A DNA stretch of 64,000 bases, taken from Escherichia virus TH54. The translations under genes and the position numbers were made by a program. The notes beneath the pieces are model-generated. The model did no database searches, was not told where the DNA came from, and worked only from the letters and a program-made list of their open reading frames with translations. This document shows positions 42,290 to 43,708 of the stretch, one piece after another. The stretch lies in the sequence record MT446420.1. One strand, 5' to 3'. Position 1 is the stretch's first letter, and every line of letters begins with the position of its first letter.

Positions 42290-42373
42290 TATATTTTTCC
42301 TTATCAATTCATGTTGTTTGTATGTTAATTATATCGTATTGGTTTGAAGCATAAATACAAGAAAGGAGGATAT

Positions 42374-42571
42374 ATGCTAAAACTATCTAGTCTAATTCAA
42401 GCCATCAAAGGCAGTCGTAAGCGAACGATTCTGGTCCTTTCGATACTCTGTTTAGTTCTACTCTGGAACTTTATTGTTGCCCCTGTTGCATTGGCACATG
42501 GTGTTATATTGCCAGTCGTCGCACTCGAATCAGTTGTAGATGTTTCACTGGCATTAATCGGCCTTATATAG
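42374..42571 (+). CDS. orphan plus-strand small hydrophobic ORF (66 aa)
   Basis: AAAGGAGGA SD 4 nt before ATG; MLKLSSLIQAIKGSRKRTILVLSILCLVLLWNFIVAPVALAHGVILPVVALESVVDVSLALIGLI; opposite to surrounding early genes. Confidence 0.3.
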   Translation: MLKLSSLIQAIKGSRKRTILVLSILCLVLLWNFIVAPVALAHGVILPVVALESVVDVSLALIGLI

Positions 42572-42679
42572 GTGGAACTTACTGGTTATGCCTATCGCTG
42601 CATCACAAGGGGTACACTTACCTCAGGTCACAATGGAACATATCCATTCCATCATCGGTTACTTTACCGGAATCCCTTC

Positions 42680-43708
42680 CTAAACTTTTGCGTACTTCGA
42701 AAGTCGCATTCTCGCCATCAGCCCTTGAGCAACGTTATCGGCCATATATGATTCGATTTGTTCAGGGGTTGCACCCTCCGATTTAACCATCTCATTTATG
42801 TCTTTAGTATGCCATGGTGCATTGTCCCAGAACATAACAGCTTCGCCAGCTTCAACGAGTTTCTTCATACGTTTAATCGTATCCGGATGTCTTGGCTCGT
42901 TGTCCATTACCCATACTCGGGTTTCAGCATAAGGAACGGCTTCCAATGCTAATGTTCCACCGGTTATCGCAATGCTGTTAGGGATAAACAAACTATCAAT
43001 CGGACCTTCCATTACCCACACGCGCTTGCGCTCATCAATCTTGTCTACGCCATAGACTTTGGAAGCTTCTGGGTGAGCTTTGATTGTGATATATTTTTGT
43101 GGTGCATCTTTGCGAAGAGCTCGTCCTTGGAAAGATTCGATTTCTTTTTTGCCGTTGAAGATAGGAATAACCAAGCGTGGTTCATTCGTTTCATTCTTAT
43201 ACGTCCCAGGATTAACGGAGTTAACTAATGCAGGCCATTTGTTTGTAAACCATAACCGGTTCCAAACATTGCTCGGAATACACCGACTTTTAACATACTT
43301 AACTATCGGATGCGCTTCTGGTAAAGTATCGATTCTTTCGCAAAAAGCAAGCTCTTCAATAACCGGAGTTTTTTCTGGTTCTTTCGGAGTTTCTGCAACT
43401 TCATTACGTTGTCGACCGAAGGCATTTTCCTTGTACTTCTCAACCATATATTCCCGGTGCAAATCCGGCTCAAACTCTTTTATGTATTTGCTTATATGCG
43501 TGGAGTAGTCACAGTTAAAACATTTCACGTAAACCGCACCATCAGACGGATTGGTATACGCCCAGAATCGAGCCTTATGTGAATCTTTCTGGGAGTCCCC
43601 GCAAACCTTACAACGACAGTTTGCTTTAAATGTGCTCCCGGTGACTTCTCTATAACGTGGTTGATACGATAAAGCTCTGACTGCAAATTCTTTATCAATA
43701 TATGACAT
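42680..43708 (-). CDS. 61: DNA primase gp61
   Basis: 342 aa (as T4 gp61); N-terminal zinc ribbon CRCKVCGDS...CFNCDYSTH and TOPRIM-like core. Confidence 0.9.
   Translation of the reverse strand: MSYIDKEFAVRALSYQPRYREVTGSTFKANCRCKVCGDSQKDSHKARFWAYTNPSDGAVYVKCFNCDYSTHISKYIKEFEPDLHREYMVEKYKENAFGRQRNEVAETPKEPEKTPVIEELAFCERIDTLPEAHPIVKYVKSRCIPSNVWNRLWFTNKWPALVNSVNPGTYKNETNEPRLVIPIFNGKKEIESFQGRALRKDAPQKYITIKAHPEASKVYGVDKIDERKRVWVMEGPIDSLFIPNSIAITGGTLALEAVPYAETRVWVMDNEPRHPDTIKRMKKLVEAGEAVMFWDNAPWHTKDINEMVKSEGATPEQIESYMADNVAQGLMARMRLSKYAKV

Follow-up and report, generated by a model that had tools for sequence, protein, structure and literature searches.

Introduction

The closest described counterpart of the locus analysed here is found in phage T4, whose genes follow one another in the order soc, segF, 56, dam, a 309-bp unannotated gap, 61, 61.1, 61.2, sp, 61.4, dmd and 41 (NC_000866.4). 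The gap between dam and 61 harbours an intact open reading frame of 66 aa on the plus strand (NC_000866 17738..17938; MVQKLMALVNAIKGNKKRIAFTISTMVGILLWNFILSPVAIAHGVNIPVVTLDTFVDLAFALVGLI). Its stop codon overlaps that of gene 61, and it carries no annotation in the RefSeq record. Related frames have been annotated in other T4-type phages, namely VR7ORF033w ("similar to RB32 ORF030w"), RB69ORF029w and Sf21 gp31, a "predicted membrane protein".

Two classes of T4 promoters bear on this junction. MotA-dependent middle promoters carry a MotA box with the consensus (a/t)(a/t)(a/t)TGCTT(t/c)A at a distance of 12 +/- 1 bp from a TAtaaT -10 element (PMC2988021), and the start of the middle promoter P56/69 was mapped at position 16813 (PMC2988021, Table 1). 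According to a note in the T4 record, the oriA primer is this P56 transcript. Among the late promoters of T4, 32 of 50 sites are perfect, nine have an A at position -13 and the rest show other single deviations; variant late promoters are used in vitro as well as in vivo (PMC2988020). The T at -13 is poorly conserved among T4 relatives (PMC1524935).

Here, we describe the interval between genes 56 and 61 in Escherichia virus TH54 (MT446420.1), of which a stretch of 64,000 nucleotides, referred to as the window, was analysed. The window belongs to the genus Gaprivervirus (VR7/SP18-like T4-type coliphages; Straboviridae, Tevenvirinae). Across the 2.1 kb surrounding the interval, it shares 98.7% identity with Escherichia virus TH57, and its identity to VR7, VR20, SP18 and further Gaprivervirus phages ranges from 89 to 95%. 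In all probability, the interval is composed of three ordinary T-even features, i.e. the gene ORF-A, a dead remnant of a type B paralogue and the middle promoter of gene 56. Their arrangement is as follows.

41771..42289, minus strand: gene 56 (dCTPase), left boundary of the interval
42328..42354, minus strand: predicted MotA-type middle promoter of gene 56, predicted start at about 42321
42374..42571, plus strand: ORF-A, intact gene for a putative small membrane protein, type A of PHROG 2024, 65 aa plus stop
42572..42683, plus strand: pseudo-B, 5'-truncated type B remnant, 36 codons plus stop, frame from 42573
42680..43708, minus strand: gene 61 (DNA primase), right boundary of the interval, converging on ORF-A and pseudo-B

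Results and Discussion

Gene order and composition of the 56-61 interval

The 5' side of gene 56 ends at 42289 and the stop codon of gene 61 lies at 42680, leaving a gap of 390 bp (42290-42679) just as the original prediction had it. The minus strand of this gap holds no ORF of 20 aa or more, and the longest one with a start codon comprises 16 codons, in line with the view that this strand is devoid of sizeable frames. The same prediction regarded the 61.x genes, sp and dmd as missing from the interval. Since T4 keeps these genes between 61 and 41, they were never to be expected between 56 and 61, and the window likewise has them past gene 61.

43744-43908: gene 61.1 (PHROG match, E=1e-32)
45123-45413: sp, spackle (PHROG match, E=3e-43)
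45817-46026: dmd, Dmd (PHROG match, E=4e-33)

The premise of missing genes rests on a mistaken T4 gene order. Compared with T4, the interval lacks dam only, which is also true for the Tequatrovirus Sf21 and for RB69. For the window itself the finding is of little importance, as its architecture is normal for T-even phages and the supposed gene loss comes from this mistaken order.

An elevated GC content of the region was not borne out either. The gap has 39.5% GC, compared to 40.0% in the window, 42.2% in gene 56 and 42.8% in gene 61. Within the gap, the right 108 bp reach 46% and the 84 bp adjoining gene 56 have 25% GC. A minus-strand early promoter had been proposed at about 42600-42650, where our promoter scan returned no sigma-70-like site; this stretch is part of the coding remnant. 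Scans of the whole gap for sigma-70 promoters and intrinsic terminators gave nothing relevant, with no terminator predicted on either strand, and no RNA family of Rfam matched between 42000 and 43000.

ORF-A belongs to a family conserved at one junction of T4-type phages

ORF-A had been considered an orphan, a description that does not hold. Searches with tblastn found homologues in 697 phage records for type A and in 126 for type B. ORF-A matches PHROG 2024, a family listed with function unknown, over its full length (E=1.6e-26, with residues 1-65 aligned to all 65 positions of the profile). Type B proteins match the same profile (E=1e-27), as do the proteins of T4 and Q7622, the T4 homologue being 54% identical to ORF-A. 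The family is spread over Tevenvirinae and Marfavirus. Its position on the plus strand, opposite to the early genes and between 56 or dam and 61, is retained in VR7, Sf21, T4, RB69, Q7622, JS98, Marfa, PM2, CGG4-1, CIP9 and PEi20. The hosts of phages with a family member at this junction include Klebsiella, Enterobacter, Salmonella and Pectobacterium. The gene is thus already catalogued as a hypothetical protein family and forms part of ordinary T-even architecture.

The relatives RB69ORF029w, RB32 ORF030w, VR7ORF033w, Sf21 gp31 and the T4 ORF share with ORF-A a full-length HMM match, a length of 63-74 aa, the strand, an upstream Shine-Dalgarno (SD) sequence together with NATAAATA, and the pattern W-N...P...G...P. 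They also share the position abutting the stop codon of the primase gene 61, which ORF-A itself does not touch because the type B remnant lies in between. Two differences stand out. Gaprivervirus carries paralogues A and B in tandem, and in T4 dam is inserted between the ORF and gene 56, a position at which the window has no dam.

The family is narrow, as a phmmer search of 1.84 billion cluster representatives retrieved only two clusters. A profile search of 5.8 billion proteins gave 75 matches, all of them from T4-type phage genomes of about 165-175 kb and all named "hypothetical" except for one "Holin". Informative matches were found neither in Pfam, NCBIfam, PADLOC and a PDB profile search nor by Foldseek of the AlphaFold2 model against BFVD and PDB, which recovered only the protein's own family. 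A literature search for the ORF names and for unannotated small proteins of T4 yielded nothing relevant. What remains is a conserved, late-looking gene that is still missing from the T4 RefSeq annotation.

Evidence that ORF-A is a protein-coding gene

The original prediction listed a 66-aa frame on the plus strand at 42374-42571. The frame is there but encodes 65 aa followed by a stop codon. Its length by itself is not significant, because 6% of the shuffled versions of these 390 bp contain an ATG-initiated ORF of at least 65 codons. Taken together with the decay of the neighbouring ORF-B within the genus and with the non-consensus late box, this figure is what would speak for a chance or decaying frame without function, a reading to which we assign a minimal probability. 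Against it, ORF-A was unbroken in every Gaprivervirus sequence examined, compared to at least five independent lesions in ORF-B, and 689 of the 697 tblastn records match 80% or more of the protein in a single place. We take ORF-A to be real because it is conserved and because the heptamer ATAAATA is rare in the window, with 12 copies compared to 22.2 expected and at least 12 copies in 100 of 100 shuffles.

The pattern of substitutions points in the same direction. Pairwise dN/dS ratios of ORF-A range from 0.17 to 0.55 (Nei-Gojobori), with synonymous sites being saturated between genera; despite this saturation, the frame stays open and keeps a length of 63-74 aa. In an alignment of 15 sequences from nine genera, differences at the three codon positions amount to 0.49/0.31/0.62. 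Six residues are invariant in types A and B (M1, W31, N32, P37, G43 and P47). F33 is shared by all type A sequences, and several of type B have Leu in its place. A codon model trained with the window's long genes ranks the annotated frame first among the six. Its score of -0.11 bits per codon stays behind that of soluble proteins and is below the 0.2-0.5 of typical genes in the window; a low score is to be expected for so hydrophobic a protein, which does not amount to proof.

In sum, a frame, an SD sequence and a late-promoter core that are conserved at one junction and on one strand, together with purifying selection, argue for ORF-A as a genuine protein-coding gene. Of the interpretations offered earlier, that of a real late small membrane protein is thus supported by conservation in at least nine genera, by purifying selection and by the conserved expression signals. 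The notion of a gene remnant is wrong for ORF-A and right for the adjoining truncated paralogue at 42572-42683.

Putative expression signals of ORF-A

T4-type late genes follow closely on a TATAAATA box, which is located about 6 nt upstream of the transcript start, and their transcription depends on gp55, gp33 and gp45 and sets in once DNA replication has begun. Both signals reported upstream of ORF-A were found. The SD sequence AAAGGAGGA is located at 42362-42370 on the plus strand, with GGAGG 4 nt before the ATG. The late-promoter-like box CATAAATA at 42350-42357 lies on the same strand 16 nt before the ATG, matches T4 TATAAATA in 7 of 8 positions and predicts a transcript start at about 42363. 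In all 11 lineages compared, an SD sequence of the GGAG/GGAGG type (AAGGAG(G), TAGGAG(G), CAGGAGG, ATGGAGG or CGGAGG) is found in front of the start codon. NATAAATA occurs 13-22 nt upstream of the start codon in ten of them, the eleventh, Salmonella phage CGG4-1, having ATTAAATA. The first base of the box varies, being T in Q7622, Marfa and CIP9, A in Sf21, RB69 and JS98, G in T4 and PM2, and C in Gaprivervirus and PEi20.

Elsewhere in the window, the canonical TATAAATA precedes soc and 61.1, in the latter case also 16 nt from the ATG. The ORF-A promoter may be weak, since CATAAATA deviates at -13, where the other seven gene-proximal late boxes in the window all begin with T. A C at this position is not a documented common late-promoter variant. 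Judged by these motifs, ORF-A is probably subject to gp55-dependent late transcription from near 42363. The gp55/gp33/gp45-RNA polymerase would initiate at CATAAATA, and translation would proceed from a leader of about 11 nt consisting essentially of the SD sequence.

A predicted middle promoter of gene 56 overlaps the late box

A MotA box, TTATGCTTCA, is present on the minus strand at 42354-42345, followed by an 11-nt spacer and the -10 element TATAAT at 42333-42328. The segment from 42354 to 42328 conforms to the consensus in both box and spacing. The motif TGCTTYA-N10-13-TATAAT occurs five times in the window compared to 0.04 times expected, each time on the minus strand. In the homologous sequence upstream of gene 56 of T4, the -10 element puts the start exactly at the mapped position 16813. 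T4 P56/69 and the window have in common the MotA box TGCTT(C/A)A, a spacer of 11-12 nt, TATAAT and the leader atgaattga.aaggaaaa before the ATG of gene 56. By homology to P56/69, the segment 42328-42354 most likely drives gene 56 as a MotA-dependent promoter, and the AT-rich 84 bp adjoining this gene would constitute a middle promoter placed back-to-back with the late promoter of ORF-A.

The late box (42350-42357) shares 5 bp with the MotA box (42345-42354) of the opposite strand. It begins with CA, the two bases that pair with the TG conserved in the MotA box. This overlap of a middle and a late promoter would account for the non-consensus C at the start of the late box. The explanation is limited to this genus, because in T4 the two elements are separated by dam.

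A rival explanation is that the region is kept mainly for a role at the level of RNA or DNA, be it antisense RNA to the transcripts of 61 or 56, control of transcription collisions or an oriA-like origin, the ORF being incidental. ORF-A indeed converges on gene 61 with no intrinsic terminator predicted on either strand. It also lies back-to-back with a promoter whose T4 counterpart makes the oriA primer, again according to the T4 record. Yet the WN, P, G and P motifs persist in the face of saturated synonymous sites, dN/dS is below 1, a strong SD sequence is conserved everywhere and Rfam offers no match. Nor is the ORF tied to P56, as dam separates them in T4. We therefore see only a very slight chance for this scenario. 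The cis-antisense arrangement suggested earlier correctly describes the geometry, convergent with gene 61 and back-to-back with the gene 56 promoter, but cannot maintain a frame. An antisense side-effect of the convergent, terminator-less layout with gene 61 is possible and would not explain the frame.

Predicted structure and possible role of the ORF-A protein

Coming back to ORF-A as a coding gene, its product begins with a basic segment (residues 1-17, net charge +5) that is amphipathic in type B; the N-terminal charge in the family is +2 to +5. Residues 18-41 form a strongly hydrophobic helix with a mean Kyte-Doolittle (KD) value of 2.5 (1.7-1.9 in relatives), in which W-N-F is located two thirds along the way. 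After H/Q-G and L-P follows a C-terminal helix of 22 residues. The type A version of this helix is hydrophobic (KD 1.8-2.3) and bears two acidic residues, both on the same face; the type B version is far more polar (KD 0.4-1.2). AlphaFold2, run on an alignment of 21 sequences, predicted helices at 2-11, 15-41 and 51-64 with a pLDDT of 77.

Owing to this difference in hydropathy, the C-terminal helix could serve as a second transmembrane (TM) segment in type A and not in type B. The topology is therefore ambiguous, the tail being either a second TM helix or a periplasmic or interfacial helix. By the positive-inside rule, the N-terminus should be cytoplasmic. ORF-A would accordingly be an inner-membrane protein of about 65 aa that has a single TM helix and keeps its basic N-terminus on the cytoplasmic side. 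As buried residues, the invariant Asn and Pro hint at contacts between helices. Located close to the periplasmic leaflet, the invariant Trp-Asn pair and this Pro might mediate such contacts with the protein itself or with another envelope protein. As for its role, our guess would be an accessory envelope function late in infection, e.g. in lysis timing or exclusion.

Two submitted or database names suggest something more specific. The EAWsc9 annotation reads "holin family protein", and UniProt lists a homologue from OE5505 as "Holin". The protein is small, hydrophobic and probably late, and in type A it could form a hairpin of two TM segments. Class II holins and pinholins are likewise about 65-70 aa long and largely hydrophobic, so that ORF-A, being probably late, would bear some resemblance to them. 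Unlike them, it has no sequence or profile similarity, a reversed charge distribution, a non-lytic context and, in type B, a polar second helix.

These points weigh heavily against a holin or another lysis protein. No holin family of Pfam was matched even at E-values up to 10, and NCBIfam gave nothing. In all genomes examined the ORF is flanked by the dCTPase and primase genes rather than adjoining an endolysin gene. The charge is N-terminal (+5) and the C-terminus ends in ...ALIGLI without a charged or hydrophilic tail, and the second helix of type B is too polar to span a membrane. All three defining features tested (family match, lysis-cassette context and charged C-terminal tail) are thus absent. 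T-even phages possess a dedicated holin, gpT, the antiholins RI and RIII, and spanins. Decades of r-mutant hunts are not known to have mapped to this site. A lysis function in this sense is highly unlikely, and the "holin" labels, stemming from automatic or submitter annotation, are unsupported.

A broader envelope role deserves somewhat more credit, although we still consider it rather doubtful. According to this idea, PHROG 2024 would be a late inner-membrane factor with a real role in the envelope, types A and B representing alternative specificities. If this were true, the latter would be the reason why phages with both copies keep losing one. Candidate roles, to be regarded with the same reserve, would be the timing or inhibition of lysis, the exclusion of superinfecting phages at late times, or the countering of a membrane-associated host defence.

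Pseudo-B is the remnant of a tandem paralogue

The sequence between ORF-A and gene 61 is best understood by comparison with Gaprivervirus phages that carry an intact ORF-B. In P479, MN01, VR25 and VR26 this gene is annotated, encodes 66 aa, starts 8 nt after ORF-A and ends with a stop codon overlapping that of gene 61. Aligned with residues 31-66 of the intact ORF-B from these four phages, pseudo-B reaches 92-97% identity, and its TAA overlaps the gene 61 stop in the way the stop of the single ORF does in T4, RB69 and JS98. ORF-B and ORF-A share 23-26% identity over their full length and belong to the same PHROG (hhalign probability 97.6%, E=4e-12). Type B occurs as a single copy at the locus in Dhakavirus (JS98, JS10 and IME08), in Klebsiella phages of the Marfa/F48 type and in Kanagawavirus, as well as in Enterobacter phages Q7622 and CIP9, Pectobacterium phage PM2 and Salmonella phage CGG4-1.

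An alignment with VR7 shows that 97 bp are missing from the window immediately after the ORF-A stop codon. They are flanked by GTGGAACT repeats (8-bp direct repeats), and the junction GTGGAACT is retained at 42572-42579. The missing 97 bp correspond to the start codon and the first 30 codons of ORF-B, and because of their loss pseudo-B is unable to produce a TM protein. Pseudo-B is the dead 3' part of a type B paralogue, inactivated by deletion between the direct repeats. An internal ATG at 42588 was considered as a new start of a 31-aa peptide devoid of a TM segment. Of the sequences sharing the deletion, only those of the window and P8 have this ATG; SP18, P896 and phage 212 lack it, and this reading was dropped.

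Within Gaprivervirus, ORF-B has been inactivated in at least five different ways, ORF-A being intact in all phages concerned.

97-bp deletion: window, SP18, P896, P8 and phage 212
+1 T frameshift: VR7
ATG-GGA to ATG-TGA plus 2-bp deletion: VR20
ATG-GGA to ATG-TGA plus 26-bp deletion: DK-13
3' deletion: EAWsc9, CJ20 and TH22

This pattern of loss agrees with B being redundant in the presence of A. The tandem of A and B with repeated independent loss of B represents a tidy natural case of paralogue redundancy and of microhomology-mediated deletion.

The tandem was also considered as the point at which an A-type left flank had recombined with a B-type right flank, for which the comparison gave no clean joint. 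The C-terminus of gp61 is equally distant (66-73%) from every genus, and gp56 has a mosaic make-up.

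An unannotated T4 counterpart of ORF-A

The T4 RefSeq record NC_000866.4 holds, without annotation, an intact 66-aa homologue of ORF-A, the small membrane-protein gene between genes 56 and 61. Its ATG is preceded by AAAGGAGG.

Features of the T4 locus
L007 2239-2439 (NC_000866.4 17738..17938), plus strand: intact, unannotated 66-aa homologue
NC_000866.4 17709-17716: GATAAATA, upstream of the 66-aa ORF

Late- and middle-type promoter motifs

ATAAATA, the core of the T4-type late-promoter box, is scarcer than expected across both strands of the whole window (12 copies versus 22.2 expected; at least 12 copies in 100/100 shuffles of the window), and the majority of its copies lie directly upstream of start codons. 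Such depletion and placement fit a scenario in which stray late promoters are selected against. Within the early/middle gene block, a perfect TATAAATA lies 16 nt upstream of the ATG of the 61.1 homologue and is followed by a GGGGG-type SD ahead of the start; thus, this gene may also be transcribed late. Perfect combinations of MotA box and TATAAT occur five times in the window, against 0.04 expected, and all five are on the minus strand. Four are additional candidate middle promoters.

Promoter-type features, all minus strand
43744-43908: 61.1 homologue
43924-43931: perfect TATAAATA
8683-8708: candidate middle promoter, perfect MotA box and TATAAT
25722-25746: likewise
31857-31881: likewise
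57272-57295: likewise

Possible mosaicism, insertion and duplication around genes 56, 61 and dmd

The window gp56 (dCTPase) is 91% identical to that of RB69, whereas its N-terminal 100 aa share only 79% identity with the congener VR7. Moreover, the homing endonuclease gene segF adjoins gene 56 in VR7 (L001 321-1500), in contrast to the window (41490-42289), where a 93-aa ORF takes its place. Together, these differences point to local mosaicism, possibly tied to homing. The junction between the remnant of ORF-B, the tandem paralogue of ORF-A, and primase gene 61 looks like an insertion hot spot, as homing endonuclease genes are annotated directly after the remnant, at the usual gene 61 end, in DK-13, RZ and P8.

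Features of the possibly mosaic region and the candidate insertion hot spot
Window 41490-41771: 93-aa ORF beside gene 56
DK-13 L013 762-1061 and P8 L022 470-590: ORF-B remnant/homing endonuclease junction, by annotation

The window also encodes a clear Dmd homologue (E=4e-33). The ORF that comes after it resembles Dmd weakly over one stretch (E=9e-6) and is possibly a diverged duplicate.

Dmd-related features, minus strand
45817-46026: Dmd homologue
45475-45813: 113-aa ORF
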